Shown: positions 34,450 to 64,000 of the stretch, piece by piece | Numbering within the stretch: the first letter of the stretch is position 1 | Layout: each line of letters opens with the position of its first letter | Assembly (NCBI GenBank): GCA_028284865.1 | Contig: JANQQV010000017.1 | Coordinates: forward strand, 261,545 to 325,544 | DNA from: Rhodothermales bacterium | Lineage (GTDB): Bacteria; Bacteroidota; Rhodothermia; Rhodothermales; UBA10348 | Direction: 5' to 3' | DNA length: 64,000 nucleotides | Position numbers and translations under genes: made by a program | Notes under the pieces: model-generated | Told to the model about the DNA's origin: nothing | What the model saw: the letters and a program-made list of their open reading frames with translations, nothing else | Database searches by the model: none

Positions 34450-34472
34450 TCGTTCTGAAAATGTCAGAAGGG

Positions 34473-34700: not shown

Positions 34701-34870
34701 GGTGTCGATTGCTGTGATTGCGGTTTGTCGCTAGAAACCCAATAAATGGGGACGTCACCCAGAGAAACGAAAAAGCAATCCAGTTCGCGACACACGTTTG
34801 AAAGAATCCTAAAGCAGATCCTTTTGAAGCCGATACTCTCGAGGGTATCCTCAGGTATCAAACCAGGACA

Positions 34871-38173: not shown

Positions 38174-38245
38174 GCCCTTCCATCAAGTGTGAGCGCGATT
38201 GTCGATATTCCGCGCTGACAATCAAGGTATTCTTCTTTTCACGCG

Positions 38246-45369: not shown

Positions 45370-45522
45370 TCCCTCCAGAATCGTTCGTCGTCATTGCGGT
45401 CAGTGCATCGACCCGAAATTCAGAAAGGTGCAACTTCTATCGTGAAAGCCATTTTCCGAGTCTTCTGACCATGCGGGATCAGTACTTTGTCGGGCCAGAA
45501 TTCAGAGAAGTGGTCAAGTACG

Positions 45523-46818
45523 ATGAGAGATATCAGTCCAACCGTGATCCGGATCAGGGAGCAGCTCGACCGGATTCCTGACGAGGTGTTCGATCACAGA
45601 GAGACATTGGAATTGTTGGACCTCTCGAACAACCGGCTCTCTGATCTTCCTGCCGAGCTCTCCGAGTGTTCCCGGCTACGAATCCTGTTTCTTTCCAATA
45701 ATCAGTTCTCGTACATCCCGGAGGTGTTGGCTGCGTGTCCGTCACTGGACACGATTGCGTTCAAATCGAATCAGATCAGTGAGCTTGAACCTCACCATCT
45801 TCCCGAACGGCTTCGATGGTTGATGGTGACCAACAATCGGATCTCAACGCTTCATGCTTCTTTCGGGCGCTTCTCCAAGCTCAGAAAGCTTGCGTTTGCC
45901 GGAAACGCACTGGAGTCGATCCCGGAGGAAATTGGCGGATGCCAAAGCTTGGAGTTGGTCCGGTTTTCGTCCAATCGGCTGAAGCGACCGCCCGTTGAGC
46001 TGTTCGATCTGCCCAATCTGGCGTGGATGTCCTTTTCGGGAAACGCCTATCCGGGCGGGTCACCTGATCGTGCCATTGACCGGTTACCGCTCATTGGAGC
46101 CGCCAGCGTGACTCGGGTGAAGCAGATCAGTGCAGGAGCGAGCGGTACACTGTCACTGGCTCGGCTTCAAGGTGGTCAATCGACGCGTGATGTTGCGTTG
46201 AAGGAGTTCTCCGGCGATATAACAAGCGACGGAAATGCGCTGGACGAAGTTGAGCTTCATGCCCGGTGTCTCGGCCATTCCAACATCATCGAACTGCTGG
46301 GACGAACCCGGTCAACGCGAGGCGATCAAGGGTTGTTGATGGAGCTTGTGCCGCCGAGCTATGAGCCGCTGGGACTGCCCCCGTCGCTTGAAACGTGCAC
46401 CCGGGATACATTCTTGGAGGCATCAAAGTTCAGTAGTGCACAGATTGCATCGGTTGGCATTCAGGTCGCCGGTGCCCTTGAGCATTTACTGTCCAACCAC
46501 GTATCCCACGGTGACCTGTATGCGCACAATATCCTGGCATCAGCGACGGGACACCTTTATGTATGTGACTTTGGTGCTGCCTCCGATCTTTCGGTGCTGA
46601 GTAGCGAGGAAAGAGTCCGGGTAGAACACATTGAAACATGTGCTTTCGGCCGTCTCCTTGAAGACATGATTCGCCAGTCTTCCAGAACGGGCGTCGATAC
46701 GGATTCTCGAATTGGCGAACTGGCTGCTGTTTGCACTCACTCGGATGTGGCGGCCCGTCCGCGACTGTCACAAGTCAAGGCAGAAATCGAAAAGCTGATG
46801 GGCGAATTCACTGCGTGA
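45523..46818 (+). CDS. leucine-rich-repeat protein fused to a Ser/Thr-type protein kinase domain (431 aa), cytoplasmic
   Basis: About 8 LRRs are present (LELLDLSNNRLSDLPAEL, LRILFLSNNQFSYIPEVL, LDTIAFKSNQISEL, LRWLMVTNNRISTL, LRKLAFAGNALESIPEEI, LELVRFSSNRLKRPP). Kinase motifs are SAGASGT (G-loop-like), VALKEF (VAIK), HGDLYAHNIL (catalytic loop) and VCDFGAA (DFG). No signal peptide or TM is present. The start is set at the ATG at 45523. Confidence 0.8.
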   Translation: MRDISPTVIRIREQLDRIPDEVFDHRETLELLDLSNNRLSDLPAELSECSRLRILFLSNNQFSYIPEVLAACPSLDTIAFKSNQISELEPHHLPERLRWLMVTNNRISTLHASFGRFSKLRKLAFAGNALESIPEEIGGCQSLELVRFSSNRLKRPPVELFDLPNLAWMSFSGNAYPGGSPDRAIDRLPLIGAASVTRVKQISAGASGTLSLARLQGGQSTRDVALKEFSGDITSDGNALDEVELHARCLGHSNIIELLGRTRSTRGDQGLLMELVPPSYEPLGLPPSLETCTRDTFLEASKFSSAQIASVGIQVAGALEHLLSNHVSHGDLYAHNILASATGHLYVCDFGAASDLSVLSSEERVRVEHIETCAFGRLLEDMIRQSSRTGVDTDSRIGELAAVCTHSDVAARPRLSQVKAEIEKLMGEFTA

Positions 46819-48428: not shown

Positions 48429-49757
48429 TCAGACTGGGCGACCAATGGAAACGTAGTCGAATCCCATCTCTTTCATGCGCTCGGGCTTGTAGAGATTTCT
48501 CCCGTCAAAAATCGCTGGAGTTTTCAGGAGCGAACGTACCTGTTCAAAATCCGGTCTTCTGAACTCGTGCCACTCCGTTGCCACAGCCAGGGCATCTGCC
48601 CCCTCAAGGACTTCGTAAGGCTCCTTTCCGTATTCGATGTCATCACCAAAGACGGCTCGAGTCGTATCCATGGCTTCGGGGTCGAATGCCTGGACCCTCG
48701 CTCCGGCATTGAGGAGGTCCCGGATGATATAGTGCGCAGGTGATTCTCTCACATCGTCAGTTCTCGCCTTGAACGCCAAGCCCCAAACGGCGATGGTCCT
48801 GTTTTCCAGCGACCCACCAAAGTGCTCGATGATGGCTCTTGAAAGCCGATGACGTTGGGAATCGTTCACCTTCAGAACGGCATCGAGAATCCTGAACTCG
48901 TAGTCATTCTGAACAGCAGTTCGATACAAAGCATTAACGTCCTTCGGGAAGCAACTCCCACCAAAGCCCACTCCAGGGTAGAGGAACAGCTTACCGATAC
49001 GAGAATCAGTACCAATGCCGCGCCGCACATGATCGACGTTGGCTCCGACTCGCTCACACAGATTGGCGATCTCGTTGATGAAAGAGATTTTCGTCGCCAA
49101 GAATGAGTTCGCGGCATACTTGGTCATTTCAGAGGATCTTTCGTCCATCACAAGGATCGGGTTGCCTTGTCGAACGAAAGGCTCGTAGATCGACCGCATC
49201 ACCGCTTCGGCTTCGCCGGACGAAGTTCCGATAACAATGCGTTCCGGCTTCATGAAATCGGCGATGGCCACGCCCTCACGGAGGAATTCCGGATTGGACA
49301 CGACATCAAACAACGTCCCGGATTCATGACCCGATTCTTCAATGATGTTCCGAACCCGATCTGCTGTGCCTACAGGAACCGTCGATTTGTTAACGACCAC
49401 ACAATAACTTGATCGTTCGTTTTCAGACCAGATGGTCGCCAGGTCACGGGCGGCTTGCTCGACAAAGGAAAGGTCTGCTTCACCATCGCCTCCAGGAGGA
49501 GTCGGGAGTGCAAAAAAGAGCACTTTGCAGCTCATTGCTGCTTCTTCCAATGCAGTCGTGAAGTGAAGGCGCCCTTCCCTCAAATTCCGCTTCAGAAGCA
49601 TCTCCAGCCCTGTCTCGAAGATAGTTGGAACTCCTTGCGACAACATTTCGACTTTGCGAGGATCGATGTCCACACAGGTCACATCATATCCCATCTCGGC
49701 GAAACACGTACCAGTGACGAGTCCGACATATCCGGTTCCAACGATTCCGATTTTCAT
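48429..49757 (-). CDS. ugd: UDP-glucose 6-dehydrogenase (442 aa)
   Basis: The Rossmann segment is [32 protein letters not shown]. The catalytic Cys context is [10 protein letters not shown]. It overlaps gmd by 4 nt. Confidence 0.9.
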
Positions 49758-50791
49758 CCTTTCAGCTGTTTGATGTCTGATTCCACCATTTCGAGAATCA
49801 TCTGGTCGAGACTGTATTCAGGAGTCCATCCAAGCTCTTCCCTGGCTTTGCGTGGGTCCCCGATCAAGAGATCCACTTCGGTGGGTCGGAAGTAACGAGG
49901 GTCCACAACGACTCGTTCTGCTCCTGTAGCCTTATCCACTCCAACTTCATTCACGCCACTTCCAGACCAGGACAGTTCGATTCCCGCAGCCGAAAACGCA
50001 CTCGAACAAAAGTCTCTTACGGTGTGCGTCTCACCCGTAGCCAGCACATAGTCCGACGGCGTCTCCTGTTGCACCATCATCCACATGCCACGAACGTAGT
50101 CTTTGGCGTGCCCCCAGTCACGTTTTGCGTCAAGATTTCCGAGATACAACGTGTCTTGCAGTCCGCGGCTGATGTGCGCAGCAGCCCTCGTGATTTTCCT
50201 CGTCACGAATGTCTCTCCGCGAATCGGACTTTCGTGATTGAACAGGATTCCATTGCTGGCATGAATCCCATAACCCTCCCGGTAATTCACGGTTATCCAG
50301 TATCCGTACAGCTTCGCCACGCCATACGGGCTTCGAGGATAGAACGGTGTTGATTCGGTCTGAGGGATTTCCTGGACCAGTCCAAACAACTCCGAAGTGG
50401 ATGCTTGGTAGAATCGAGTCTTTTTCTCGAGTCCGAGAATCCGTATCGCTTCAAGAATCCGCAGAACTCCAATGGCGTCAGAATTGGCGGTGTACTCGGG
50501 CGTGTCAAAACTTACTTGAACGTGACTCTGAGCGCCCAGATTGTAGATTTCGTCCGGCTGAACCTCTTGGACAATCCGGATGAGATTGGTCGAATCCGTT
50601 AGATCTCCGTAGTGGAGAAAGAAGTTCTGATTCTCTTCGTGGGGGTCCTGGTACAAATGATCGATACGACCCGTATTGAAAGAGCTGGATCTTCTTTTGA
50701 TGCCATGAACCTTGTAGTTCTTACTCAACAGGAATTCGGCAAGGTATGCGCCGTCTTGTCCTGTAATCCCTGTTATAAGAGCGACTTTCAT
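49754..50791 (-). CDS. gmd: GDP-mannose 4,6-dehydratase (345 aa)
   Basis: Motifs are [55 protein letters not shown] and [19 protein letters not shown]. Confidence 0.95.
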
Positions 50792-51053
50792 GCGGCTGTC
50801 CTTTGTGGTGCTTTGCTTGGCTGTATACTGCGCGTTTCGGCTTTCTCGACGCTTTGTTAAGCATTTCTGTGGCTAATATTCAACACAACCGGAATATCAA
50901 CCAATTTGATATCTGCCGCGTCTGACGGAACTCCCGTTGGAAGGGGCAATTGTTTGTTGGGCAACGTGTCATCGGCGAAGACCGCATACAGAGATTTCAC
51001 GCTCTGACGGCTTCATGGTCATGATCGCTGGATCATAAAGCGTATATTTCAGG

Positions 51054-53426
51054 ATGATAAATCAAGAGCAGCAACACGCGTCCGGAACAGCCCTTTCCCG
51101 GGAAAACGATGAGATCTCACTGGGTGATCTCCTCGGCAAGTTGATTGTACACAAATGGTTTCTGCTTGCAGGCTATGTCATCGTACTCAGTGCGATGGCC
51201 TTCTTCACCCACTCGACAGCTCCCAAGTATGAGGCGTCCAGCCTCCTTCTGATCAGTGACCAGAACTCGACTCCTCAGTTGGGTGAGTTGATGGGTCTTC
51301 AATTGGGGAATCGAAACGTAGCAAACGAGATCGAGATCATCAAAAGCCGGACGATCGCGCTGCGGGTTGCGGATTACATTCTCAACACACAGATCATTCC
51401 CGGCACGGATGAACAGTTCACCATGCTGAGAATGGAGGGTCTGGGGCCGCCTCCGACCCAGGCGGACGTTGCTGCCGATCTGATCAGCAGGTACGTTTCG
51501 GTCAGTGCCGTGTCCCGAGAAACCGATTTGATCACGGTCAAGGTCTCGAGCACCGTCCCCCTGGAAGCTGCGTTCATCGCCGACATGTACGCCGATGAAT
51601 ACGTGAACTACAATCTCACCCAGAGTCGTCGTCGGATTTCTGCTAGCCGTGAGTTCTTGGAAGACCAGGCAAATGCGGCAGACAGCGTGGTAGCGAGTGC
51701 GGAAACGAATATCCTGACATATTCGAGGGAACAGGGTGTAGTCGACCCGCAACTCGAGGCCAACACACTATTCGCCCAGATGATGGAGTTGGAGTCGGAG
51801 CTGTATCGGACCGACTTCCAACTGAGGGCAAGCCAATCAGAATTGCGGACGTTGGAAGCCGAGTTGAATCAGATTACCCCGGGGCTTGCCAGGGCACTGA
51901 ACTCCAACGATGACGAAGCCATCCGGGCCATTCGGGAAACTATCACGACACTGCAGATTGAGAACGCGGTCAAGGTCTCGGTCAATCCTGACCTTGTTCA
52001 GGATCCATCGGTTGATCCGACGTACGCAAAGAATCTCCAGACCATCAGGGACCTGACTCAGGACTTGAATTTCCGAACGTCCAATCTGGTCGAGGAAATG
52101 TTCTCGGATGGATCCATCATGCTGGGGCAGAATTCGGAAGCGGCGATGAAGCAGATTTCCGACTTGCAGCTCAGGCTGATTGACAAACGGCTTGAGATAA
52201 GCGGTGCCCAGGCCAAAAAGGACGTGCTTGACCAGCAGAAGCTGCTCTACCAGTCCCAGATTGATGCCATACCCAACAAGGCGGTTCTGTTGGCCCGTTT
52301 TGAGCGAGCCATGAATACGTCAGCTCAGCTGTACACCACCATTTTTGAGAGCCTTCAGGAAGTGCGGATTGCTGAACGATCAGAATTGGGATATGTGGAC
52401 ATCATTGATCGATCGTCTGTGCCCCAGGATCCAGTAAGTCCGAGAATTCCCTTCAATCTGCTGTTCGGAGCCATCCTTGGTACGGTTGTAGGAGTCGGAG
52501 CCGCATTTGGTCGCGCAGGAATGAACAATCGGGTGCTGCGCCCCGAGGACCTGCGAGCCCGTGGATTTGCGGTGCTGGGCATTATCCCGAACATGCGGAG
52601 TTCGGTTGAGAATGACTTTGGCGGCAAGAGTTTTGTTGAGTTCGGTGGCAACCGCACCAGCACATCACTCATTTCGTATTTGAATCCGCTATCGCCGGGC
52701 TCGGAATCCTACCGGAGATTGAGAACGAACGTCGATTTTTCTGCGCCAGACTCAGAAAAGAAGATCGTGCTGATTTCAAGTCCGGAACCAGGGGAAGGCA
52801 AAACGTCCATTTCCCTGAATCTGGGGATTGCGAACGCTCAGCTTGGCCGGAAGACGTTGTATATCGATTCCGATTTGCGTCGTCCACAGGGTCACAAGAT
52901 GTTGGGAGTATCCCGCCAGCCAGGTTTGATCGACTGGATGTTTGATGATTCTCTCCGGGACGTGGAAACCCTCAGGACCTACATCGACGATTTCTACTTG
53001 CTCCCTGTTGGCAAGGCGGCACCCAACCCGTCTGAGTTGCTGGGGTCAAGGCGTATGAAACTGTTGATGGAACGGCTTTCCCGGCAGTTCGATACCATCA
53101 TTCTGGATTCCCCGCCGATCCTGACCGTTTCGGATGCCTTGCAATTGGCTCCGTTCACCGACATGATGATTGTCGTGGCTTCGGCCGGTGAGACGCATTG
53201 GAGCGCGATCGAACGAACCCGTGAGGTATTGAAGGACGCTGGAGTAACGTCGAATGGAGTTGTCCTGAACCGTTTTGACGTCAAGGAAGCCTACGGTGGA
53301 TACGGATACGGATATGGTGGAGGCTACGGCTATGGTTATGGCTATGGCTATGGCTACGGAACAGGATCTGACGGGATATATGCCGATCAGGAGATGCAGC
53401 AAATCCTTATAGACAGAAAACCATGA
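51054..53426 (+). CDS. polysaccharide co-polymerase / tyrosine autokinase (Wzc/GumC-type, 790 aa) with a Gly-Tyr repeat tail
   Basis: It has an N-terminal Wzz-type domain with two TMs and a coiled-coil region. The C-terminal BY-kinase has Walker A SSPEPGEGKTSISLNLG, Walker A' YIDSDLRRP and Walker B IILDSPPIL. The Tyr cluster is GGYGYGYGGGYGYGYGYGYGYG. Confidence 0.88.
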   Translation: MINQEQQHASGTALSRENDEISLGDLLGKLIVHKWFLLAGYVIVLSAMAFFTHSTAPKYEASSLLLISDQNSTPQLGELMGLQLGNRNVANEIEIIKSRTIALRVADYILNTQIIPGTDEQFTMLRMEGLGPPPTQADVAADLISRYVSVSAVSRETDLITVKVSSTVPLEAAFIADMYADEYVNYNLTQSRRRISASREFLEDQANAADSVVASAETNILTYSREQGVVDPQLEANTLFAQMMELESELYRTDFQLRASQSELRTLEAELNQITPGLARALNSNDDEAIRAIRETITTLQIENAVKVSVNPDLVQDPSVDPTYAKNLQTIRDLTQDLNFRTSNLVEEMFSDGSIMLGQNSEAAMKQISDLQLRLIDKRLEISGAQAKKDVLDQQKLLYQSQIDAIPNKAVLLARFERAMNTSAQLYTTIFESLQEVRIAERSELGYVDIIDRSSVPQDPVSPRIPFNLLFGAILGTVVGVGAAFGRAGMNNRVLRPEDLRARGFAVLGIIPNMRSSVENDFGGKSFVEFGGNRTSTSLISYLNPLSPGSESYRRLRTNVDFSAPDSEKKIVLISSPEPGEGKTSISLNLGIANAQLGRKTLYIDSDLRRPQGHKMLGVSRQPGLIDWMFDDSLRDVETLRTYIDDFYLLPVGKAAPNPSELLGSRRMKLLMERLSRQFDTIILDSPPILTVSDALQLAPFTDMMIVVASAGETHWSAIERTREVLKDAGVTSNGVVLNRFDVKEAYGGYGYGYGGGYGYGYGYGYGYGTGSDGIYADQEMQQILIDRKP

Positions 53427-53962
53427 CCGACATGTTTTCACTTTCGAGAACCAGGTTCTCCCAGCTTGCCATGTTGGGTCTCCTGTCCGTTTTGATGGGA
53501 GTTCAGTCCAGCAGTGCACAGATCAGTGAACTGGATCGGTCTCGGCTCAATCAGGCAGCTTTTTACAACTACACTGAACAGGGTGATGTAACCATCAGGG
53601 TTCATGTTTGGGGAGCTGTCCGTTTTCCGGGTCTGTACGAGATTCCAAGAAGTTCTTTATTGAGCGACCTGATTTCTCTGGCCGGAGGGCCTCAGGCTTC
53701 TGAACGGGCTCAGCGGTCCACAAGGCTGGTTCAACTCAAGCTGCACAGACAGGAAGGATCCGGTACGGAAAAGACGGTGGTATTCTCTTCGGCCATGGAA
53801 AATGAAATCATCGTTGCCAACGAGGATCCGATCCTCGCAGACGGAGATGTGCTGACATTTGAGGCCACCATCCGTCAAGGATTCAGATGGCGTGACCTGT
53901 TTCCAATCGTCTCGATGGTGGGAACGATAGTCCTGATTCTAGACAACATCGCCTCCAGTTAG
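53423..53962 (+). CDS. small SLBB-domain polysaccharide-export-like protein with a C-terminal TM (179 aa)
   Basis: It has an ATGA overlap with the Wzc stop and a signal peptide ending SSSAQ. There is one SLBB-like unit (VHVWGAVRFPGLYEIPRSSLLSDLISLAGG ... LADGDVLTF). The terminal TM is LFPIVSMVGTIVLIL. Confidence 0.6.
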   Translation: MTDMFSLSRTRFSQLAMLGLLSVLMGVQSSSAQISELDRSRLNQAAFYNYTEQGDVTIRVHVWGAVRFPGLYEIPRSSLLSDLISLAGGPQASERAQRSTRLVQLKLHRQEGSGTEKTVVFSSAMENEIIVANEDPILADGDVLTFEATIRQGFRWRDLFPIVSMVGTIVLILDNIASS

Positions 53963-53984
53963 GAGCAATCACCTTCAGTCCTGA

Positions 53985-54197
53985 ATGGCTGTGCCGAACG
54001 ATTCCAAATTCAGATCATTGACCAAAGCCATCTCATGGCGGGTGTTGGCCACTATGACAACGGCCATCATCGTTTACGTTGCAACGGGCGAATGGACGAC
54101 GGCTCTTGCAGTTGGGGGAGTAGAGGTGGTTGCGAAATTCCTGCTCTATTACCTGCACGAGCGCCTTTGGAACCACGTTTCATTCGGTGTCAATTAG
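53985..54197 (+). CDS. DUF2061-family small membrane protein (70 aa)
   Basis: [27 protein letters not shown] ... [16 protein letters not shown] matches the remembered DUF2061 pattern. That family is commonly next to cysD/cysN. Confidence 0.6.
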
Positions 54198-54204
54198 ACC
54201 CATC

Positions 54205-55122
54205 ATGAAGACATCGCTTGAGATCGACAGGACTCATCTACAAAGGATCGAGTCAGAGGCCATTCACATCATCCGGGAAGTTGCTGCCAGCTTCAAGAAT
54301 CCCGTCATGATGTATTCAATCGGGAAGGATTCTTCCGTGATGCTGCACCTGGCACGGAAAGCGTTTTACCCAGCTCCCATTCCGTTTCCCCTGCTGCATG
54401 TCGATACCACCTGGAAGTTCAGGGAGATGGTGGAATTCCGTGATCGGGTTGCGAAAGAGTACGGTCTGGACCTGATCGTACACATCAACGAGGATGGTGT
54501 AAGGGATAACATCAATCCATTCGATCATGGCTCTGCGCACCACACCGATATCATGAAAACGGTGGCGTTGAAACAGGCTCTGGACAAGTATCGCTTCGAT
54601 GCAGCCTTTGGAGGCGCCAGGCGCGACGAAGAGAAATCCCGCGCAAAGGAGAGGATTTTCAGCTTCCGGACGGCGGAACACCAGTGGGACCCTAAAAATC
54701 AACGTCCCGAGCTGTGGAATCTGTACAACACCCGCGTGAATGAAGGCGAGAGTATCCGTGTTTTCCCTTTGTCGAACTGGACGGAGCTGGATATTTGGCA
54801 GTACCTCCAGCAAGAAGAAATCGAAATCGTACCGCTCTATTTCGCCGCGGAGCGACCGGTTGTACGGCGCTTCGGGCAGTGGATCATGGTGGACGATGAC
54901 CGGATCCCGCTCGAAGAAGGAGAAGTGCCCGAAATGAAGACCGTTCGTTTCAGGACGCTGGGCTGCTATCCTCTGACTGCAGCTGTGGAGTCGACGGCAA
55001 CCACGCTGCAGGAAATTGTAGACGAGATGTTCAGCGCACGGACTTCCGAGCGGGAGGGTCGAATCATTGACTTCGACCAGCCTGGATCCATGGAAGCAAA
55101 GAAACGTGAGGGGTACTTCTAG
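54205..55122 (+). CDS. cysD: sulfate adenylyltransferase subunit 2 (305 aa)
   Basis: It has the PAPS-reductase-fold PP-loop [12 protein letters not shown], plus DTTWKFREM and [20 protein letters not shown]. The start is set at the ATG at 54205. Confidence 0.93.
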
Positions 55123-57027
55123 ATGACCCTTGACACGAATCCAACAGTTTCCCTGGAAGCCCAATATGGTCGTGAAGGCCTATTGCGGTTCATTACTTGC
55201 GGCAGTGTTGACGACGGAAAATCAACGCTGATCGGTCGGCTCCTCTGGGACTCTAAATTGGTTTACGACGACCAGAAAGCGGCTCTTGAGGCGGACTCGA
55301 AGCGGGTTGGCACCCAGTCAGGCGACATCGATTATGCGTTGCTGCTGGACGGTCTTGAAGCCGAGCGCGAACAGGGGATCACCATCGACGTCGCATACCG
55401 TTACTTCGCAACGGTCAAGCGGAAGTTCATTGTTGCTGATACCCCCGGGCACGAGCAATACACCCGCAACATGATTACGGGGGCATCGACTGCCCAGGCT
55501 GCCATCATCCTGGTGGATGCAGAGTCGGTGCAGCGCAATGGCGGACTGCTCACACAGACCAAGCGGCACAGTTATCTCGTGTCATTGGTGGGTATCCAAC
55601 ACGTCGTGCTGGCCATCAACAAGATGGATCTCGTCGACTATGATCAGGAGGTCTTCGACCAGATAGCCGAAGAGTATCGCCAGTTCGCCCAGGGATTGGG
55701 TTTCCCGGATATCCAGGCCATCCCGGTTTCGGCTCTTCGCGGGGACAATGTGATGGTTCGCGGAGACCACACGCCATGGTATACCGGACAGACACTCATC
55801 GAGTACCTGGAGTCCGTCAATGTTGAGGATGGGCGATCGGGACTTCCGTTGCGTCTTCCCGTCCAGATAGTTCTTCGTCCTGACCGCCAGTTCCGGGGAT
55901 TCTGTGGAACGATCGCCAGCGGTGTATTGCGACCGGGGATGGAGGTGATGGTAGCTGCATCGGGAGAAACTGCCCGCGTCGAGCGGCTCGCCGCGATGGG
56001 AGGTGACCTTGACGTGGGGATTGCCGGCGATTCAGTTGCTCTGACGTTGGACCGCGAGATTGATGTGAGTCGTGGCGACGTATTGGTGGACCCGGACGAC
56101 GGTCCTTTGGTTGCCGATCAGTTCAAGGCTCATTTGGTCTGGCTACACGCCAAGCCGCTACTGCCGGGAAGGGGGTATCTGATCAAGGTCGGCACGTCAA
56201 CGGCTCCAGCGTATGTATCGGACCTGAAGGAAAAGATCGACGTGAACTCGCTCAGTCATGAGCCAGCGAAGACTTTGGAAATGAACGAGGTCGGTGTAGT
56301 GAACGTGGCCCTGGGTCGTGATATCGCGTTCGATCCATTCGAGCGCAACGCGGCCATGGGGAATTTCATCCTGATCGATCGCGAAACGAATGCAACGGTG
56401 GGTGCAGGAATGATCATGCACGCATTGCGACGTTCGTCCAATGTTCAATGGCAATCAGTTTCCGTAGACAAGTCGGCTCGTGAGGATCTTCTGATGCAAC
56501 GCCCCCGCTGTGTGTGGTTTACGGGGCTTTCCGGGTCGGGAAAATCAACCATTGCCAACATTGTCGAGCGCAAATTGCACGCGATGGGCAAAAAGACCTA
56601 TTTGCTTGACGGAGATAACATCCGACACGGTCTGAATCGGGATCTTGGATTCACAGACGCAGACAGGGTTGAGAATATCCGGCGTATCGGAGAAGTGGCC
56701 GCATTGATGGTGGATGCTGGTCTGATCGTATTGTGCTCGTTCATTTCTCCGTTCCGAGCCGAACGGGCCCAGGTGCGACAACTTCTTGAAAATGGTGAGT
56801 TCGCTGAAGTATTTGTCGACACGCCTCTCGCCATTTGCGAGGAAAGGGATGTGAAGGGATTGTACCAACGCGCCCGGAACGGGGAGTTACCGAATTTTAC
56901 CGGTATCGATTCGCCCTATGAGTCACCAGAATCACCCGAGATCCACCTGAAGACACAGGAAAGCTCCGCGGAAGAAGCGGCGGATAAGGTGATCGAATTC
57001 CTCCTTGGCGGGGCCAGCATGCGTTGA
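55123..57027 (+). CDS. cysN: bifunctional sulfate adenylyltransferase subunit 1 / adenylyl-sulfate kinase (CysN-CysC fusion, 634 aa)
   Basis: GTPase motifs are [23 protein letters not shown] and NKMD. The C-terminal APS kinase P-loop is [14 protein letters not shown]. The start codon directly abuts the cysD stop. Confidence 0.93.
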
Positions 57028-57125
57028 TCGATCAGGCCAATATGAATACTGGATGCGATCTGGTTCGAACCGGTTCGGTTCCGAGGGACGCACAAACTTT
57101 GCACTAGCAAGAATCAGCTAACAAC

Positions 57126-58448
57126 ATGGAAATGGGAAATTCCCGCTTGGACAATCTGGTAGCCAGAATCGATGCCAGGGACGTGACTATCGGCATTGTT
57201 GGGATGGGATATGTCGGACAGCCTCTCGCGCTGCGCTTCTCCGAGGTCGGCTTTCGGGTTCTGGGATTCGATATTGATCCGGTCAAAGTGAACCTGCTCA
57301 ACAGCGGCCGCTCGGAAATCGAACACATCAAGGATGAGGAAATTGAGAAGGCCGTTCAGAATGGATTTGAAGCGACTTCTGACATGGCCCGAGCGTCAGA
57401 AGCCGATACACTCATTATTTGCGTTCCGACTCCTCTCAACAAATACAGGGAGCCGGATCTCAGTTATGTGATCAGTTCGCTTGAAGCTCTTCTGCCATTC
57501 ATGCGGGCCGGACAGATTGTTTCGCTGGAAAGCACCACTTATCCCGGTACCACTGAAGAGGAAATCGTCACTCGGGTCGAGGCCAATGGGTTCGTTGTGG
57601 GTGAAGATATTTTCGTGGTCTACTCACCGGAACGCGAGGATCCGGGAAACAAGGATTTCACTACCCGGACCATTCCGAAAGTGGTAGGTGGACACACCGA
57701 AGCCTGCCTTGAAGTAGGAAACGCGCTGTATGGATCCGTGATTGATTCGGTGACGCCGGTCAGTTCTACCAAGGCGGCTGAAATGACAAAGCTTCTTGAA
57801 AACATCCACCGGGCGGTCAATATCGGTTTGATCAACGAAATGAAGATCGTCGCGGACCGGATGGGGATCGACATTTTCGAGGTCGTGGACGCCGCAGCAA
57901 CCAAGCCCTTTGGTTTCACACCATATTATCCAGGCCCCGGACTGGGAGGTCATTGTATTCCGATCGACCCCTTCTACCTGACCTGGAAAGCTCGCGAATA
58001 CGGTCTGCACACACGATTCATCGAGTTGTCCGGCGAGATCAACAGGGCCATGCCTGAATACGTGATTGGCAAGCTGGTCAAAGCGCTGAATGAGCGCCGG
58101 AAGGCGCTGAAAGGAAGCCGAGTACTGGTTCTCGGAATCGCGTACAAGAAAAATGTCGACGACATGCGGGAGAGTCCGTCGGTTGAAATCATGGAATTGC
58201 TTCGGGATGCTGGTGCCGAGGTGTCTTATTCAGATCCGCACGTTCCTGTATTCCCCCGGATGAGAGAGCATCAATTTGAATTGTCCAGTGTTGCGCTCAC
58301 CCAGGATGCGCTTGCGGGATTTGATGCGGTCATCATGGCTACGGATCATGAGCGATTCGATCTTGATCTTATCCTCTCCCATTCCCAATTGATCATTGAC
58401 AGTCGCGGTGTTTACCGGGAGCCGTCAGAAAACGTCGTAAAAGCCTGA
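57126..58448 (+). CDS. UDP-N-acetyl-D-hexosamine 6-dehydrogenase (WbpA/TviB-like nucleotide-sugar dehydrogenase, 440 aa)
   Basis: It has [30 protein letters not shown] and the catalytic Cys context [12 protein letters not shown] WbpB-like gene follows. Confidence 0.8.
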
Positions 58449-59396
<948 letters not shown>

Positions 59397-59517
59397 TTGT
59401 TGAACTCCCACGGAATCCAGGATGTGATTCGGCATTCATTTTCGAGTTCGTGGAGCGCACGGCAGGATCGAGGCTGTCCCAACTCGATGGTTCTAGGCGC
59501 AGGGAGGTGAGTGCACC

Positions 59518-61407
59518 ATGTGTGGTATAACCGGAGGATGGTGGCCGTCAGGGTCCCAGCATGTTGCAGAAAGGCTTGAGCGTTCATTGGACGCCATGAA
59601 GCACCGGGGTCCGGACGATCGTGGGAAACTCCTGTACCAGCTGGATGGCGCAACGACGGCGTTGGGCCACATGCGGCTTTCCATTATTGATGTCTCATCC
59701 GCGGGGCATCAACCCATGAGTTCTACGGACGATCGATTGACAGTCGTCTTCAACGGGGAGATCTATAATTACCGCGAGCTGAAAAAGGAGCTCGAAGGCC
59801 TGGGGCATAAGTTTTCATCTGGTTCCGACACCGAGGTTCTGCTGGCCGCCTGGAAGCAATGGGGTACAGCCTGTTTGCCGCGGCTCACCGGCATGTTCGC
59901 CTTCGCCATGTTAGATCGACAAGAGAAGACCCTTACGTGTGTTCGGGATGCTTTCGGGATCAAGCCTTTCTTCTATTCGAACTCTGACGACGGATTCCAC
60001 TTCGGATCCGAGACTGGGGCGGTCCTGGAGCTTCAGGCCTCGAAACCAGCTGTCAATTGGCAACGCGCGTATGACTACCTGGTGCATGGGGATTATGACA
60101 GCAACTCCGAATCGTTTTTCGAAGGCATTCACCACCTCATGCCCGGTCACTTCCTGACTCTGGATCTGACCGATGGGAAGGTAACTCCACCCGAGTCCTG
60201 GTGGCGTCCCGACATCCGGGAGCGACGTGACCTGGGTTTTTCGGGAGCCGTCGAGAAGATCCGCCAACAGTTCCTTGATAATGTCCGGCTTCACCTCAGA
60301 AGTGATGTGCCGTTGGGCTCTGCGTTGTCGGGAGGAGTGGATTCGTCGTCCATTGTGTGTGCGATGCGGCATCTCGAGCCGGATCTTCCCATTCACACGT
60401 TCAGCTTCATCGCTGCCGGGAGTGATGTAAGCGAAGAGCACTGGGTGGATCAGATAAACGACCGTGTTAAAGCCATATCCCATAAAGTGGTGGTAACCCC
60501 ACAGGATCTGGCTAAGGACCTCGATGACATGATTCGAGTCCAGGGTGAGCCGTTCGGCAGTACCAGCATCTATGCTCAATACTGTGTGTATCGGCTGGCA
60601 AAGGAAAGCGGAATTACGGTCACCCTGGATGGGCAGGGAGCTGATGAAATGCTTGCAGGCTACAGTGGGTATCCCGGCCCGCGACTGCATAGCCTGATCC
60701 AGACCGGTCAATGGAAGCGTGCCTGGAGATTCCTCAACGATTGGTCGACATGGCCAGGACGCAGCAAGGCTGCCGGAGCAAAGGCGTGGGCGAGCCATGT
60801 CGCTGGAGATGAACTGCATCGCCTGTTCCGTTCCGTCAATGGCGGGTCCCTCAAGCCAGCGTGGCTGAAGGCCAACGAATTGAAGGAAACGGGAGTTGAA
60901 TTCCAGTTCTCGCGTCGGATTGCGGTGTCAGAACTGAAGGGGCGACAATTGATGGCAGAATTGGCAGCTTCCCTTACTGAAAGAGGCATTGTGTCCCTCC
61001 TGAGGAACGGTGATCGCAATTCCATGCGGTTTTCCATCGAGAGCCGTGTTCCCTTCCTGACGACAGACCTGGTTGAAACGCTGATGTCTGTCCCCGAGGA
61101 GTACCTGATTTCGGATCAAGGAGAGACCAAACATATTTTCAGGGCAGCCATGCGAGGCATCGTTCCTGACGCGGTATTGGATAGGAGGGATAAAATTGGA
61201 TTCGCCACTCCCGAGAAAGCGTGGCTGTTCGCTCTTTCTGATACGGTTCGAGGCTGGTTGGGCGAAGACATCGAGATTCCTTTCATCAACCGGCAGGAGA
61301 TGTTGTCCGAATTTGATCAGATCATTTCTGGGAAGCGTCCCTTCACCTGGCAGGTTTGGCGCTGGATCAATTTCTGCCGTTGGTATGGGCACTATGTTGT
61401 CCGTTGA
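59518..61407 (+). CDS. asparagine synthase (glutamine-hydrolysing)-family amidotransferase (629 aa)
   Basis: The N-terminal nucleophile is MCGI and the PP-loop is SGGVDSS. Its position inside a polysaccharide locus suggests a WbpS-like sugar-amidating role rather than Asn biosynthesis. Confidence 0.85.
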   Translation: MCGITGGWWPSGSQHVAERLERSLDAMKHRGPDDRGKLLYQLDGATTALGHMRLSIIDVSSAGHQPMSSTDDRLTVVFNGEIYNYRELKKELEGLGHKFSSGSDTEVLLAAWKQWGTACLPRLTGMFAFAMLDRQEKTLTCVRDAFGIKPFFYSNSDDGFHFGSETGAVLELQASKPAVNWQRAYDYLVHGDYDSNSESFFEGIHHLMPGHFLTLDLTDGKVTPPESWWRPDIRERRDLGFSGAVEKIRQQFLDNVRLHLRSDVPLGSALSGGVDSSSIVCAMRHLEPDLPIHTFSFIAAGSDVSEEHWVDQINDRVKAISHKVVVTPQDLAKDLDDMIRVQGEPFGSTSIYAQYCVYRLAKESGITVTLDGQGADEMLAGYSGYPGPRLHSLIQTGQWKRAWRFLNDWSTWPGRSKAAGAKAWASHVAGDELHRLFRSVNGGSLKPAWLKANELKETGVEFQFSRRIAVSELKGRQLMAELAASLTERGIVSLLRNGDRNSMRFSIESRVPFLTTDLVETLMSVPEEYLISDQGETKHIFRAAMRGIVPDAVLDRRDKIGFATPEKAWLFALSDTVRGWLGEDIEIPFINRQEMLSEFDQIISGKRPFTWQVWRWINFCRWYGHYVVR

Positions 61408-61511
61408 GGACCATGAGCGCATCCGGTCCGCCATTTCTTTCACGAATCAGACAGGTGATTCTGCAGGATCCGTGACGGCGCCATCCAAAATTTAATTCCT
61501 CTAGCAGGTTC

Positions 61512-62825
61512 ATGAGCACGATAATCCATCAGTGGATCGATCGGGTCAAAGATCTCTTTGCCAAAGGGTCCTTCGTCCGTCACGCCGGAATTCTGGCGGG
61601 CGGAACGGTGGTAGCGCAGGGCGTCACGATGGCTGCTCTACCTGTATTGACAAGGTTGTATTCTCCGGAGGATTTCAACCTTCTTGCGTCATTTGCAGGG
61701 GTTGTCAGCATCCTGACCGTTGTGTCGAGCCTGCGGTACAATATGGCGATTCCGCTTCCGCAAGCCGATGAGGAAGGGTTTTCGCTGACGGTGGTTGCTC
61801 TGGGTTGCACAGCGATCATCAGTAGTATGATCGCTCTCTTGTTCTTGATTGCGCCCGAAGCAATCGGATCTGCGATCAGGCAACCTGAATTGGTGTCCTT
61901 CCTTTGGCTGGTTCCGATCGGTGTGTTCGTCGCGTCAACGTACAATGCGCTCCAGTTCTGGGTCTCGCGCAAAAAACAATTCGGCCTGGTCGCCCGAACC
62001 CGCATGACCCGCTCCGTTGGGGGAGCCGGTACCCAGATCGGATACGGACTGTATGCTCCTTCACCGTTCGGCCTGGTTCTGGGGCAGATTGCTTCTGAGG
62101 GGCTCGGGATTGTTGGATTGGCGAGGAATATCCTGCGAGAAGACAGGCAACTGATCCGCTCTGTTTCACTCGGATCGTTGCGTGACCGCGCCCGCGATTA
62201 TCGGAGATTTCCGCTCTATTCCGGGCCAGAAGCCTTGTTTGATACGGCAGCTGCCCAGATTCCGATTATCCTGATTGCCGCAGCCGCCCTCGGTCCGGAA
62301 GCCGGTTTCCTGTTGGTTGCCATGCGCGTAATGGGCATTCCAACCCGACTCATCGGATCATCCGTAGCTCAGGTATTCGTAGTCGAAGCACCGGAGAAAC
62401 TCCGAAAGGGAGAGCTCCACTCGTTTACCCTGAAGACGTTGAATGCACTCCTGAAAGTGGGTTCCCTACCCATGTTGTTGGTGGGAGCCGTTGCTCCCTG
62501 GGTTTTTGGCTGGGTGTTCGGACCGGAGTGGACGCGTGCCGGTTGGCTGGTTGCGTGGTTGACGCCCATGTTCATCCTTCAGTTTGCCGCCTCGCCCATG
62601 TCCCTTGTTCTTCACGTCATCGGCCGGTTGAAACTAGCCATGTGGATGCAGGTATTCGGTCTGGTTTTTCGAGTAGGATCGATTGCCGCAGTGGCGGCAT
62701 ATTATGCAGGATATCTCTCCGAGGCGTTCGCCATAGCTGGGGCGATATACAATGCCGTTTTCATAATGGTCATCCTTCACGCGGTCAAACGATCCACGAT
62801 CTCACCAGAGCAGGCGCCCCTGTAA
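61512..62825 (+). CDS. oligosaccharide flippase (Wzx/MOP family, 437 aa)
   Basis: It is a polytopic membrane protein of about 12 TM lying between the sugar-modification genes and the Wzy-like gene. Confidence 0.75.
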   Translation: MSTIIHQWIDRVKDLFAKGSFVRHAGILAGGTVVAQGVTMAALPVLTRLYSPEDFNLLASFAGVVSILTVVSSLRYNMAIPLPQADEEGFSLTVVALGCTAIISSMIALLFLIAPEAIGSAIRQPELVSFLWLVPIGVFVASTYNALQFWVSRKKQFGLVARTRMTRSVGGAGTQIGYGLYAPSPFGLVLGQIASEGLGIVGLARNILREDRQLIRSVSLGSLRDRARDYRRFPLYSGPEALFDTAAAQIPIILIAAAALGPEAGFLLVAMRVMGIPTRLIGSSVAQVFVVEAPEKLRKGELHSFTLKTLNALLKVGSLPMLLVGAVAPWVFGWVFGPEWTRAGWLVAWLTPMFILQFAASPMSLVLHVIGRLKLAMWMQVFGLVFRVGSIAAVAAYYAGYLSEAFAIAGAIYNAVFIMVILHAVKRSTISPEQAPL

Positions 62826-62827
62826 GA

Positions 62828-64000
62828 TGCTGACCCCCGCTTTTGTCATCTGCTACGTTTCATTCCTTGCTTGGGGGAGTGTTTTCGTCTACAAGCGCCG
62901 ACAGCGGATCGGACGCTCGTTGATCGGGGCGTATGTGTTTTCGTTTGCCGTGGCCAACTACATCGGGATTGCCATTCTATATCTCGGGCTGGACTCCTAC
63001 AGGGTCGACGTTGGAATCAGCGATCCTGACCTGATATTCAGGATGTTGGTCTATTCAATCGTTGCGTTCCTGGTGGTGTTCGGGACCTTCTCATTGGTCA
63101 GTTCAAACTCGACCGAGAGGACAACTGCCAAGGTGGCAATAACGAAGTGGGAATCCCTGATCACAGCAGGGTTCATCATCATCTCCGCCCTGGTCATTTT
63201 CCAGTATCTCAGATCCGTCAACTCGATTGCCCTATTGCTGGCGCTCCAAGGCAGCATGAATGATGTGCTTCTGGCCAGAAGCGAAATGGGAAATGACTTC
63301 GGTGGGCTTCATTGGTTCAGGATTGCGCTGGTCCAATTGCCCGTGATCATCTTTCATGTGATTTACATGTCCCTTTCCCGGGATAGATGGGTCAACAGAG
63401 CATTTACTATCGTCTTGTTTGGCGCAATTCTCATCTTGTTGACCCTCTCAACGGAGAAGTTTGCCGTTGTGCAATTCCTTGCCGGGCTCCTGTTTGTGAG
63501 AAGCAAGTATGTCAAAAAGGCATCACTCGCCCAGTTGGTCAGATGGGGAATCGCCTCGGTGATTTTCGTGGTCTTCCTGTACGTGACGTTTACGACAGTT
63601 CAGGACTATGAAACAGCCATGGAAGTCGCGTTCTCCAGAGTCTTCACGGGAAGTATCGGCACCTCGCATTTCTATCTCGAGTATTTTCCCGAGATCGAGC
63701 CGTTCCTGTACGGTCGTAGTCTACCCAACCCGATGGGGATAATGCCTTGGGAGCCCTACAGTGTATCCATTGAGATCATGAACTGGAAGTTTCCCCACTT
63801 CTTCGAAAGGGGAATCATCGGGAGCTCGCCTTCTGTGTTCTGGGCTGAAGGGTATGCGAATTTCGGACATCTGGGAGTCGTCCTGTCCTCCTTGTATATC
63901 GGCGCGTTCATCGGTGTCTTCCAACGCGTATTCGATCGATACAATGGATACGTTTTCATTCGAGCTGTGGAAGGGTGGTTTTATTCGTATTTGTTGACCG
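62828..64000 (+). CDS. polytopic membrane protein, probable oligosaccharide repeat-unit polymerase (Wzy-like), 5' part; runs off the right edge
   Basis: Absent from the ORF track because there is no stop in the window. My own translation from the ATG at 62828 gives MLTPAFVICYVSFLAWGSVFVYKRRQRIG ... FSRVFTGSIGTSHFYLEYFPEIEPFLYGRSLPNPMGIMPW ... WFYSYLLT. That is 391 codons with no stop and many TM segments. It starts 2 nt after the Wzx stop. Confidence 0.5.

Follow-up and report, generated by a model that had tools for sequence, protein, structure and literature searches.

A predicted sulfate-activation cassette is a lineage-conserved part of a Wzc/Wzx/Wzy surface-polysaccharide locus in a Rhodothermales bacterium

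The predicted sulfate-activation cassette described here, composed of a DUF2061 gene, cysD, and a cysN-cysC fusion, is an old, lineage-conserved part of the Wzc/Wzx/Wzy surface-polysaccharide locus of its clade. We analyzed a 64-kb stretch of a 347,646-bp contig (hereafter, the window), together with the 4.1 kb that follow it. We regard it as roughly an even prospect that the cassette is made together with the glycan for its sulfation, through a sulfotransferase that was not seen in the sequence read. The genes of the locus, with the profile scores that identify them, are as follows.

48429-49757, minus strand: ugd, UDP-glucose 6-dehydrogenase (3/3 UDPG_MGDP_dh domains; TIGR03026, 451 bits, cut-off 190)
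49754-50791, minus strand: gmd (PF16363, 530 bits; TIGR01472, 606 bits, cut-off 415)
51054-53426, plus strand: Wzc-type polysaccharide co-polymerase/tyrosine autokinase (Wzz, GNVR, and AAA_31 P-loop domains; TIGR01007, 147 bits, cut-off 108)
53423-53962, plus strand: SLBB protein, 179 aa (PF10531, 28 bits, cut-off 27)
53985-54197, plus strand: DUF2061 small membrane protein, first gene of the cassette (PF09834, 73 bits, cut-off 23)
54205-55122, plus strand: cysD, sulfate adenylyltransferase small subunit (NF009214 equivalog, 529 bits, cut-off 413)
55123-57027, plus strand: cysN-cysC fusion, ATP sulfurylase GTPase subunit and APS kinase (NF004035, 978 bits, cut-off 715)
57126-58448, plus strand: second nucleotide-sugar dehydrogenase, WbpA/TviB/WecC-like (TIGR03026, 434 bits, cut-off 190)
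58449-59396, plus strand: GFO/IDH/MocA oxidoreductase, candidate WbpB-like sugar 3-dehydrogenase (PF01408 and PF02894)
59518-61407, plus strand: AsnB-like glutamine-dependent amidotransferase (GATase_7 and Asn_synthase; TIGR01536, 428 bits, cut-off 267)
61512-62825, plus strand: MOP-family (Wzx) flippase (Polysacc_synt_3, 66 bits, cut-off 23; weak match to the MOP flippase model)
62827-64000, plus strand, continuing past the window: Wzy-like polytopic membrane protein (position and hydrophobic sequence)

The gene content and order given in the first-pass annotation were confirmed: Wzc, mini-SLBB, DUF2061, cysD, cysN-cysC, sugar-modification genes, flippase, and Wzy-like gene. The co-directional, tight packing that it described was also found. 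From wzc to the Wzy-like gene, all genes lie on the plus strand with gaps of −4, 22, 7, 0, 98, 0, 121, 104, and 1 nt, and the cysD stop directly abuts the cysN-cysC start, as had been stated. No intergenic terminator-like site in the locus exceeded chance. The ugd and gmd genes overlap by 4 nt and, as annotated, are divergent from the export operon, both on the minus strand and both above the profile cut-off. The annotation had further credited gmd with a 6-deoxyhexose precursor; this part did not stand, because gmd alone is insufficient and no fcl or rmd partner was found within the 64-kb window. The Wzc protein ends in the tail YGGYGYGYGGGYGYGYGYGYGYG (GYGYGY). The SLBB protein, whose gene overlaps wzc by 4 nt, has a signal-like segment at its N terminus and a hydrophobic one at its C terminus, and is a mini OPX-like export component. 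For the second nucleotide-sugar dehydrogenase, no specific equivalog model reached its cut-off. The window was said to end inside the Wzy-like gene, and the gene indeed extends to window-equivalent position 64092, giving a complete protein of 421 aa (read from L001, 11316-12581). It has no match in Pfam or NCBIfam and is a putative polymerase by its position and hydrophobic sequence.

The embedded PAPS-synthesis genes were likewise borne out, as CysD and CysN/C both score above the curated equivalog cut-offs and keep all catalytic motifs. In CysD, the PP-loop SIGKDS lies at residue 38. The ATG start at 54205 matches the Logan gene call; the NCBI call is shorter (260 aa). The CysN/C protein also passes TIGR02034 (607 bits, cut-off 336) and TIGR00455 (261 bits, cut-off 139), carries GTPase motifs G1, G3, G4, and G5 and the complete APS-kinase set, and matches PDB entry 1zun_B (E = 3e-145) and the APS kinases 3uie and 4bzp (E = 1e-61 to 6e-53). 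From these sequence features, DUF2061-cysD-cysN/C is predicted to be a complete and intact cassette for the conversion of sulfate to APS and then to PAPS. In other loci, DUF2061 is fused to an APS kinase, to an Inositol_P domain of the CysQ (PAP-phosphatase) type, or to a PHP domain. These fusions tie the cassette to PAPS/PAP turnover.

The conservation of the cassette became clear from comparison with related loci. In five related genomes (L163, L165/L169, L166-168, L173, and L176), the cassette lies at most two genes from wzc, SLBB, GFO, ugd, or gmd; at least three orders of these linked genes occur besides that of the window, and the ortholog identities are 52-86%. DUF2061 orthologs lie immediately 5' of cysD in L163 and L176, whereas L165 and L166 have a DUF2061 pseudogene. 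The identity of CysD to its sister orthologs is 84-86%. The orthologs of ugd adjoin the cassette in L163, L165, and L166 (80-82% identity), and those of gmd occur in the same loci and in L173 (77-82%). The wzc orthologs of L163, L165, L166, and L176 are 56-57% identical, and SLBB orthologs follow wzc or GFO in L163, L165, L173, and L176 (52-66%); the SLBB proteins of L166 and L168 are truncated, with 77 aa each. GFO/IDH/MocA orthologs flank the cassette in L165, L173, and L176 (54-59%), and the second nucleotide-sugar dehydrogenase has a 53% identical ortholog in L176, there located after SLBB. On the left flank, the window shares htrA, aroC, a 718-aa protein, and LTXXQ with L173, and the last two of these with L176.

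These data bear on the origin of the locus, for which horizontal acquisition had been claimed from a GC deficit of about 10 points. The two hand-counted samples behind that figure, 33/60 (51061-51120) and 31/60 (52081-52140), were reproduced by our recount. However, the GC content of the locus is 53.5%, compared with 57.6% for positions 1-34000 and 58.1% for locus 1, so the deficit is only 4-4.6 points; GC3 hardly differs. Recent import was therefore rejected, given this small gap and the synteny across the lineage, in which five genomes keep the cassette near wzc/SLBB/GFO/ugd/gmd and two share the left flank.

We searched for the sulfotransferase that a sulfated glycan would need. The annotation had seen none in the window, and this was upheld by each method applied to it: no member of any Pfam sulfotransferase family occurs among the large ORFs of the window and the 4.1 kb downstream, and neither a custom Sulfotransfer_2 HMM run against the six-frame ORFs of the window nor phmmer with a PAPS-motif scan returned one. 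No such gene is present in the 55 kb upstream and 11 kb downstream of cysNC. The prediction that it lies just past position 64000 failed in the 4.1 kb inspected, which contain two GT4 genes in addition to the remainder of the Wzy-like gene, and a GATase-WbuX amidotransferase gene broken at the contig end.

In three sister genomes (L163, L165/L169, and L166), by contrast with the window, a Sulfotransfer_2 gene lies 5' of the cassette on the same strand. These sisters are uncultured Bacteroidota, including the clade of 'Bacteroidetes bacterium CG12_big_fil_rev_8_21_14_0_65_60_17', and share orthologous DUF2061, cysD, cysNC, ugd, gmd, wzc, and SLBB genes with the window (53-86% identity). Their enzyme scores 52-70 bits (cut-off 22) and carries the motifs PKTGGTS and RNPWDRAVS; its gene is about 8-9 kb from cysD in the two sisters in which both genes were read in one locus. 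A NusG/UpxY-like gene comes before it and GT4 after it, with a flippase-like gene next in L163 and L166. This NusG/UpxY-like-Sulfotransfer_2-GT4 block is missing upstream in the window. The sister loci also differ in that their cassette is 5' of ugd and convergent with it, whereas that of the window is 3' of SLBB, and in the toxin-antitoxin and AAA_14 insertions between sulfotransferase and cassette. A profile of the sister enzyme returned no ortholog from the source contig, in a database that includes other proteins of that contig; sulfation here would thus need a different sulfotransferase, outside the sequence read. The closest relative of the enzyme outside the sisters (L170-L172, 49% identity) lies in a glycan locus beside a flippase. 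Furthermore, the rhamnose/ABC-transporter glycan locus L177 is an independent example of PAPS genes and a sulfotransferase in one glycan locus: it contains cysD, cysNC, cysQ, and DUF2061 fused to an APS kinase, and a sulfotransferase gene lies 6 kb downstream in divergent orientation.

Rhizobial NodP corresponds to CysD and NodQ to a CysN-CysC fusion, and they act with the sulfotransferase NodH. As in the window, the pair is encoded alongside biosynthetic genes; it is reserved for a glycoconjugate of the surface or the medium, a role that the pair of the window may share. In contrast, nodPQ are extra copies beside housekeeping cysDN, are located next to nodH on a symbiosis plasmid, and act in the synthesis of a lipo-chitooligosaccharide, whereas the window has a chromosomal, vertically conserved locus with no linked sulfotransferase. 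The association of PAPS genes with sulfated-capsule clusters is not a new idea, having been published for Vibrio and Cobetia as well as for nodPQ. The capsule clusters of Cobetia marina KMM 1449 (PMC11766843) and Vibrio sp. KMM 8419 (PMC11641403) contain cysD, cysN/cysC (fused in Cobetia), and sulfotransferases, with sulfate detected by NMR; for the authors, the hallmark of a locus that makes a sulfated polysaccharide is that it combines PAPS genes with sulfotransferases (PMC11766843, PMC11641403). In Vibrio, the cluster cys genes are explicitly second copies (PMC11641403). These are gammaproteobacterial ABC-transporter (kps) capsules, whereas the window has a predicted Wzc/Wzx/Wzy system of a Bacteroidota-like lineage and a DUF2061 gene at the head of the cassette. 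Neither cysQ nor a sulfate transporter lies beside the cassette here, unlike in Cobetia (cysQ and sulfate permease), L175, L177, and L178. The Synechocystis xss (synechan) cluster is also of the Wzx/Wzy type, with a co-polymerase, flippase, and polymerase, and makes a sulfated polymer (PMC8205485). Its full OPX gene is elsewhere, which may also hold for the window with its mini-SLBB only (PMC8205485). The xss cluster has two sulfotransferases, and PAPS, cysN, and cysC are not mentioned in the text of the paper (PMC8205485); the window is its mirror image, with PAPS genes and no sulfotransferase.

A less probable but serious alternative is that the cassette is the only sulfate-activation system of the organism, for cysteine and methionine, that it only happens to share a conserved chromosomal region with the conserved core of the polysaccharide locus, and that the glycan is unsulfated. 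The 68 kb read without a sulfotransferase, the lack of an ortholog of the sister enzyme on the contig, and the single CysN/C from that contig in the homolog list are consistent with this. Two of the three sisters have an SDR gene and cysH, and cysH is placed after the sulfotransferase block and before the cassette; it passes the NF002537 cut-off, and the resulting cysH-cysD-cysN arrangement looks assimilatory, which counts against dedication to the glycan and keeps an assimilatory or dual role in play. These CysH proteins carry CC...CxxC and ECGLH, which we take to mark the Fe-S class that acts on APS. On that premise, assimilation in these sisters could proceed without the APS-kinase domain, which has nevertheless been retained. 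Adjacency by itself is weak evidence, because in L052 (Pseudoalteromonas) and L054 (Pseudidiomarina), cysDN(C) adjoins a glycan locus and there is no sulfotransferase gene in between. Fusions of cysN and cysC are also present in bacteria for which no sulfated product is known, such as Pseudomonas aeruginosa. However, neutral synteny does not predict that the linkage to wzc/SLBB/GFO persists through several rearrangements, and the L163 array has the sulfotransferase without cysH. In no member are sulfite reductase, transporter, or cysK/cysE genes near the cassette, and the DUF2061 fusions indicate PAPS/PAP rather than APS metabolism. The in-frame stop in cysD of L173 and L174 (two assemblies) and the decayed DUF2061 of L165 and L166 suggest that in some members the role of the cassette is accessory and dispensable.

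It is unlikely that the PAPS is destined for a lipid, peptide, or small metabolite, with acceptor and sulfotransferase genes elsewhere. The intact APS-kinase domain, implying that PAPS is made, and the locus without a sulfotransferase would fit; mycobacterial cysDNC supplies sulfolipid synthesis via unlinked stf genes, and Bacteroides cysDNC adjoins a steroid sulfotransferase. Nevertheless, the cassette is flanked by export and sugar-modification genes rather than lipid or peptide genes, and both the sister enzyme, with its GT4 neighbor and, in two sisters, a flippase-like gene, and its L170-L172 relative are found among glycan genes. Still more improbable is a regulatory role, in which PAPS tunes polysaccharide output, as reported for brp expression in Vibrio vulnificus, instead of donating sulfate. 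Such a loop would be consistent with PAPS synthesis being expressed together with wzc, but the V. vulnificus cys genes form an unlinked housekeeping operon outside the EPS locus, the cassette here has neither a c-di-GMP gene nor a regulator gene beside it, and the sister arrays encode a real sulfotransferase.

The sulfated surface glycan predicted by the annotation therefore stands in part: the intact, co-oriented PAPS module, the sister sulfotransferases, and the like design of the published capsule clusters speak for it, and the absence of a sulfotransferase from the sequence read here against it, so that for this genome it is plausible but unproven. In the glycan-sulfation reading, the cassette, which has wzc and mini-SLBB for export on one side and the sugar-modification genes on the other, is most likely co-transcribed with them because the gaps are 0-22 nt on its upstream side and 98 nt on its downstream side. 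PAPS production would then coincide with glycan production, and PAPS would serve the glycan as sulfate donor; APS from the same cassette may additionally supply assimilation. In the sisters, the Sulfotransfer_2 enzyme would O-sulfate the repeat unit while it is still lipid-linked on the cytoplasmic face, ahead of flipping. The position of its gene upstream of the cassette, with GT4 and, in two sisters, a flippase-like gene, is evidence that the glycan of the lineage is sulfated.

All genes that the first-pass annotation had listed for the polysaccharide locus were recovered in the region 48429–64000, and their content and order are real. The genes are as follows.

Genes of the polysaccharide locus (window coordinates, strand, product)
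48429–49757, minus, ugd; 4-nt overlap with gmd, divergent from the plus-strand array
49754–50791, minus, gmd; divergent from the plus-strand array
51054–53426, plus, Wzc-type co-polymerase/tyrosine autokinase with a GYGYGY tail
53423–53962, plus, SLBB protein of 179 aa
53985–54197, plus, DUF2061, a small membrane protein
54205–55122, plus, cysD
55123–57027, plus, cysN-cysC fusion (cysNC)
57126–58448, plus, second nucleotide-sugar dehydrogenase
58449–59396, plus, GFO/IDH/MocA oxidoreductase
59518–61407, plus, AsnB-like amidotransferase
61512–62825, plus, MOP flippase
62827 to beyond the window end, plus, polytopic Wzy-like ORF

The plus-strand genes are spaced by −4, 22, 7, 0, 98, 0, 121, 104, and 1 nt, and the tight cysD-cysNC junction was confirmed, with cysNC starting at the base right after the cysD stop. 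A scan of the operon found no candidate terminator in the intergenic gaps of the array, and the counts were at the chance level. Similarly, when the operon and a 453-nt gap 5′ of a WbuX-type amidotransferase gene beyond the window end were scanned for terminators and promoters, all matches were at the chance level. The identified parts of a Wzx/Wzy pathway are Wzc and the flippase, with the polytopic ORF, which has no family match, as the candidate polymerase. In the portion of the locus read, no initiating phosphoglycosyl transferase was found, and the only OPX-like protein is the 179-aa SLBB protein. A second polysaccharide locus (13436–23597, minus strand) encodes an Omp85-like protein, a flippase, two GT4 glycosyltransferases, a Wzy_C polymerase, a Wzz-like protein, and a full-length Wza (593 aa, 21816–23597), and is without a sulfotransferase. 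This Wza may serve the cys-bearing locus, which itself has only the SLBB protein.

The DUF2061-cysD-cysNC unit (hereafter, the cassette) encodes apparently complete sulfate-activation enzymes. CysD scored above the equivalog cut-offs (NF009214, 529.2 bits against 413; TIGR02039, 524 bits against 397), carries the PP-loop (SxGKDS, here SIGKDS at residue 38), and is adjacent to its CysN partner. The CysN/C fusion exceeded the cut-offs as a whole (NF004035, 978 against 715 bits) and in both halves (TIGR02034, 607 against 336 bits; TIGR00455, 261 against 139 bits), and matched the structures of Pseudomonas syringae CysN (1zun_B, E = 3e-145) and of several APS kinases, among them the Mycobacterium tuberculosis CysC domain (4bzp_A, E = 6e-53). 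The CysN GTPase motifs G1, G3, G4, and G5 (residues 27, 106, 166, and 202) and six APS-kinase motifs (P-loop, LDGD, DRxENxRR, FISP, KGLY, and FTGxDxPYE; residues 468, 495, 514, 540, 578, and 592) are intact. Judging from these scores, motifs, and structure matches, the cassette should make APS and PAPS. The start of cysD differs by annotation: the longest ORF begins at TTG 54130 (330 aa), the NCBI product (P0124) has 260 aa, and the Logan call and the family alignment favor ATG 54205 (305 aa).

A CysN/C identical to that of the window (P0001) is recorded on a 347,646-bp NCBI contig, the source contig. Its closest homologs, with 72–76% identity, occur in GCA_029262775.1 (locus L163), GCA_029262835.1 (loci L165 and L169), and a third clade (loci L166–L168) that includes ‘Bacteroidetes bacterium CG12_big_fil_rev_8_21_14_0_65_60_17’. 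These three sisters carry variants of one co-directional array.

Composite order of the array in the three sisters
1, NusG/UpxY-like gene (99.6 bits, just under the cut-off of 100); seen in L163 and L169 but not read in L166
2–3, Sulfotransfer_2 gene, then a GT4 gene
4, gene for a flippase-like protein, with calls in L163 and L166 but none in L169
5, inserted toxin-antitoxin and AAA_14 genes
6, cysH and an SDR gene; two of the three sisters
7, DUF2061, cysD, cysNC (then GFO in L165)
After the cassette, convergent ugd and gmd, then wzc and SLBB

The sister proteins are 80–82% (Ugd), 79–82% (Gmd), 57% (Wzc), 53–56% (SLBB), 67–70% (DUF2061), 84–86% (CysD), and 59% (GFO) identical to those of the window. 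Two more distant loci, L173 and L176, whose CysN/C proteins are 65–66% identical to that of the window, both have genes in common with its left flank (L173: htrA, 75%; aroC, 83%; a gene for a 718-aa protein; and LTXXQ. L176: the 718-aa protein, 57%; and LTXXQ, 64%). The order in L176 is GFO, DUF2061, cysD, cysNC, wzc, SLBB, dehydrogenase, and onward, and that in L173 is epimerase, cysD, cysNC, two intervening genes, GFO, SLBB, gmd, and ugd. The shared flanks and the synteny of the locus among these relatives indicate that the locus, cassette included, has been passed down vertically at one position on the chromosome. Through several rearrangements, the cassette has kept its link to the genes for export and core sugars. 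This pattern speaks for functional coupling and against a recent horizontal acquisition.

The base composition is consistent with this history. The first-pass annotation had proposed horizontal acquisition from a GC dip of about 10 points, based on two 60-base samples. Although these counts were right (33/60 and 31/60), the GC content of the locus is 53.5%, against 57.6% for positions 1–34000 and 58.1% for 13436–23597, a difference of 4–4.6 points, and GC3 is similar or overlapping between the cys-bearing locus and the compared regions. Together with the synteny of the core and flanks across the lineage, the small dip (about 4 points) and the similar GC3 led us to reject horizontal acquisition. 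Within the window, composition deviates most at 34000–38200 (47–50% GC against about 58%), a far larger dip than that of the polysaccharide locus, and this stretch covers an 1100-aa histidine kinase with a Y_Y_Y domain (34871–38173).

Two further features of these regions were observed. Between the sulfotransferase gene and cysNC, the sister arrays contain toxin-antitoxin pairs (Xre/RES and PIN) and AAA_14/DUF4143 ATPase genes at similar positions with different content (L163, 3784–8602; L169, 12185–14463 and 16518–20804; L166, 4350–6627), and the array may be an insertion hot spot within the polysaccharide operon. In the window, a 443-aa protein with leucine-rich repeats and a Ser/Thr/Tyr protein-kinase domain (45487–46818) is flanked by a T9SS-tail protein and the LTXXQ gene; a TPR-kinase occupies the matching position in L176.

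The sulfotransferases of the sisters scored 52–70 bits against a Sulfotransfer_2 gathering score of 22, cover the whole model, and carry PKTGGTS and RNPWDRAVS motifs. For the source genome, the first-pass annotation had seen no sulfotransferase in the window and expected one just downstream. To read beyond the window, we used a Logan contig from run SRR20820731, which is identical to the window along 12,489 bases and adds 4.1 kb, to window-equivalent position 68,095. This extension contains the remainder of the Wzy-like gene, two GT4 genes, the 453-nt gap, and the WbuX-type amidotransferase gene, cut by the contig end. From window position 1 to window-equivalent 68095, no sulfotransferase was found by Pfam in any large ORF, including the antisense ORFs of the locus, by a Sulfotransfer_2 HMM built from 120 homologs in all six-frame ORFs, or by phmmer and a scan for paired PAPS-binding motifs. 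The window itself is thus confirmed to have none visible, the expected gene is absent from the 4.1 kb read beyond it, and a cryptic enzyme in antisense or unassigned ORFs of the locus was rejected. The locus clearly continues past the sequence read, because the initiating transferase has yet to appear. Additionally, in a profile search with the sisters’ sulfotransferase, none of the 227 matches lay on the source contig; the same search recovered the enzymes on sister contigs of 86,811 and 85,255 bp.

Divergent sulfotransferases in such loci can easily be missed by routine annotation, as shown by L177, a separate glycan locus with cys genes. Here, a 272-aa protein (18097–18915) that is blank in the precomputed annotation has weak matches to Sulfotransfer_1 (E = 1.6e-4) and Sulfotransfer_3 (E = 4.4e-4). 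The gene that ends the extension encodes an N-acetyl-sugar amidotransferase of the fused glutamine-amidotransferase/WbuX type, about 604 aa long (15309–16583 of L001, which overlaps the window and runs past its end; window-equivalent 66820–68094). It occurs with 63–76% identity in glycan loci (L002–L161) of very different phyla (Alpha-, Beta-, and Gammaproteobacteria, Bacteroidota, Actinomycetota, Spirochaetota, Cyanobacteria, and Firmicutes), and this distribution points to wide horizontal spread of the gene. Scans of genome and metagenome contigs with the partial protein gave only relatives of 64–76% identity, from unrelated phyla. Its C-terminal 180 aa are very conserved across phyla.

In the mechanism we propose, the glycan genes, wzc, and the cassette would be expressed together. 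GTP hydrolysis would power the formation of APS by CysD and CysN, and CysC would convert APS to PAPS. Before Wzx flips the lipid-linked repeat unit, a sulfotransferase would sulfate it on the cytoplasmic face, and Wzy and Wzc would polymerise and export the sulfated glycan. The predicted first two steps have a strong basis in the sequence. Only the sisters show a gene for the sulfotransfer step, which we infer for the source genome. The observations of the first-pass annotation were largely correct. Its sulfated-glycan reading is supported for the lineage by the sisters’ linked Sulfotransfer_2 genes, and is unproven for the source genome, with no sulfotransferase in the sequence read. The chances that the source genome makes a sulfated glycan seem to us evenly balanced.

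A less probable reading, which nevertheless deserves serious weight, is that the cassette is assimilatory or of dual use and that the glycan is not sulfated. The missing sulfotransferase ortholog on the source contig favors it, as does cysH in the arrays of two sisters. This cysH passes the phosphoadenylyl-sulfate reductase cut-off (205 bits against 154), and the neighborhood therefore resembles an assimilatory cysH-cysD-cysN cluster. Adjacency alone also carries little weight: cysD/N/C occurred within 10 kb in 6 of 160 unrelated glycan loci gathered via the amidotransferase, and in the two of these six that we examined, from Pseudoalteromonas (L052) and Pseudidiomarina (L054), no sulfotransferase lay between the cys genes and the glycan locus, so cys/glycan adjacency by itself predicts little. 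However, the array of L163 has the sulfotransferase and lacks cysH. Linked cysH was found in two sister genomes only and linked sulfite reductase in none; a profile search gave two close cysH matches, both in sister genomes, and no close homolog on the source or L163 contig. No assimilatory partner (cysH, sulfite reductase, sulfate transporter, or cysteine synthase) was detected in the 64-kb window or L001.

Decay and domain retention also argue against an assimilatory role. The same in-frame stop in cysD (HIN*DGV) is present in L173 (7108–7995) and L174, two assemblies of one population, with an intact cysNC downstream, and DUF2061 has decayed to a pseudogene in L165 (in-frame TAG) and L166 (deletion); these losses fit a dispensable accessory function. 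The sisters’ CysH carries CC...CxxC and ECGLH signatures, which we take to mark the iron-sulfur, APS-using class of reductase. If so, assimilation in the sisters needs no APS-kinase domain, yet this domain is retained and fused, and DUF2061 fusions likewise stand against the assimilatory reading. The remaining, smallest share of probability goes to PAPS made for another acceptor or acting as a regulator, as in Vibrio vulnificus (PMC6113621). In two sister arrays, the Fe-S-type cysH has an SDR gene of the epimerase/dehydratase family immediately after it or overlapping it (L166, 6697–8356; L169, 14460–16078). We considered whether this SDR is a UDP-sulfoquinovose synthase using sulfite and rejected the idea; it had no SQD1/Agl3-type match, only generic epimerases/dehydratases with E ≥ 1e-15.

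DUF2061, which heads cysD-cysNC cassettes, is a family of uncharacterised small membrane proteins with 3,192 representative relatives. Among 10 longer relatives scanned, three were fused to APS kinase, one to Inositol_P (CysQ-type), and one to PHP. The evidence set comprised the window gene (53985–54197), P0401, P0453, P0459, P0461, P0464, and L177 (8229–8960). The rhamnose/ABC-transporter glycan locus of L177 contains a fusion of DUF2061 to APS kinase together with cysD, cysNC, and cysQ, and the divergent sulfotransferase lies 6 kb downstream of these cys genes. The domain fusions suggest that the family belongs to PAPS/PAP metabolism; in the literature searched, no paper characterised DUF2061 or reported this link. 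A more far-reaching proposal, which we regard as unlikely in its entirety, is that DUF2061 is a membrane partner of the PAPS cycle, holding or regulating APS kinase or PAP phosphatase at the site of repeat-unit assembly on lipid carriers, the inner membrane, that the lineage has long kept sulfate activation wired to Wzc export, and that the glycan here is sulfated by a non-orthologous or unrecognised sulfotransferase.

The classical case of PAPS genes serving glycoconjugate sulfation is rhizobial nodPQ. The sulfated-capsule clusters of Vibrio sp. KMM 8419 and Cobetia marina KMM 1449, whose polymers were shown to be sulfated, contain cysD, cysN/C, and sulfotransferases; the cys genes are second copies in the former, and the latter has a fused cysN/C, cysQ, and a sulfate permease. 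The authors of these studies regard PAPS genes and sulfotransferases in one cluster as a hallmark of sulfated polysaccharide synthesis (PMC11641403, PMC11766843). Synechan is made by a Wzx/Wzy-type cluster that includes sulfotransferases, and the paper on it does not mention PAPS, cysN, or cysC (PMC8205485). The window shows the first half of the hallmark (PMC11641403), with cysD and cysNC between wzc/SLBB and the sugar-modification genes. It differs in four respects: its lineage, pathway type, DUF2061 gene, and missing sulfotransferase. We consider the locus a candidate sulfated-polysaccharide cluster, in which one of the two defining features, the sulfotransferase, is absent within the sequence read.

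The most reusable by-product of this analysis is the domain-fusion evidence for DUF2061. In genome mining, PAPS genes within a glycan locus should be read with caution: they hint at sulfation but, without a sulfotransferase, do not predict it. If the sulfated-glycan reading is true, the DUF2061-cysD-cysNC cassette and the sisters’ 236-aa Sulfotransfer_2 would form a compact set to try for the engineering of sulfated polymers. To our knowledge, the documented sulfated surface polysaccharides of bacteria so far come from cyanobacteria, rhizobia, and a few marine Gammaproteobacteria, and the same reading would extend them to an uncultured Bacteroidota-like lineage that uses the Wzc/Wzx/Wzy pathway.
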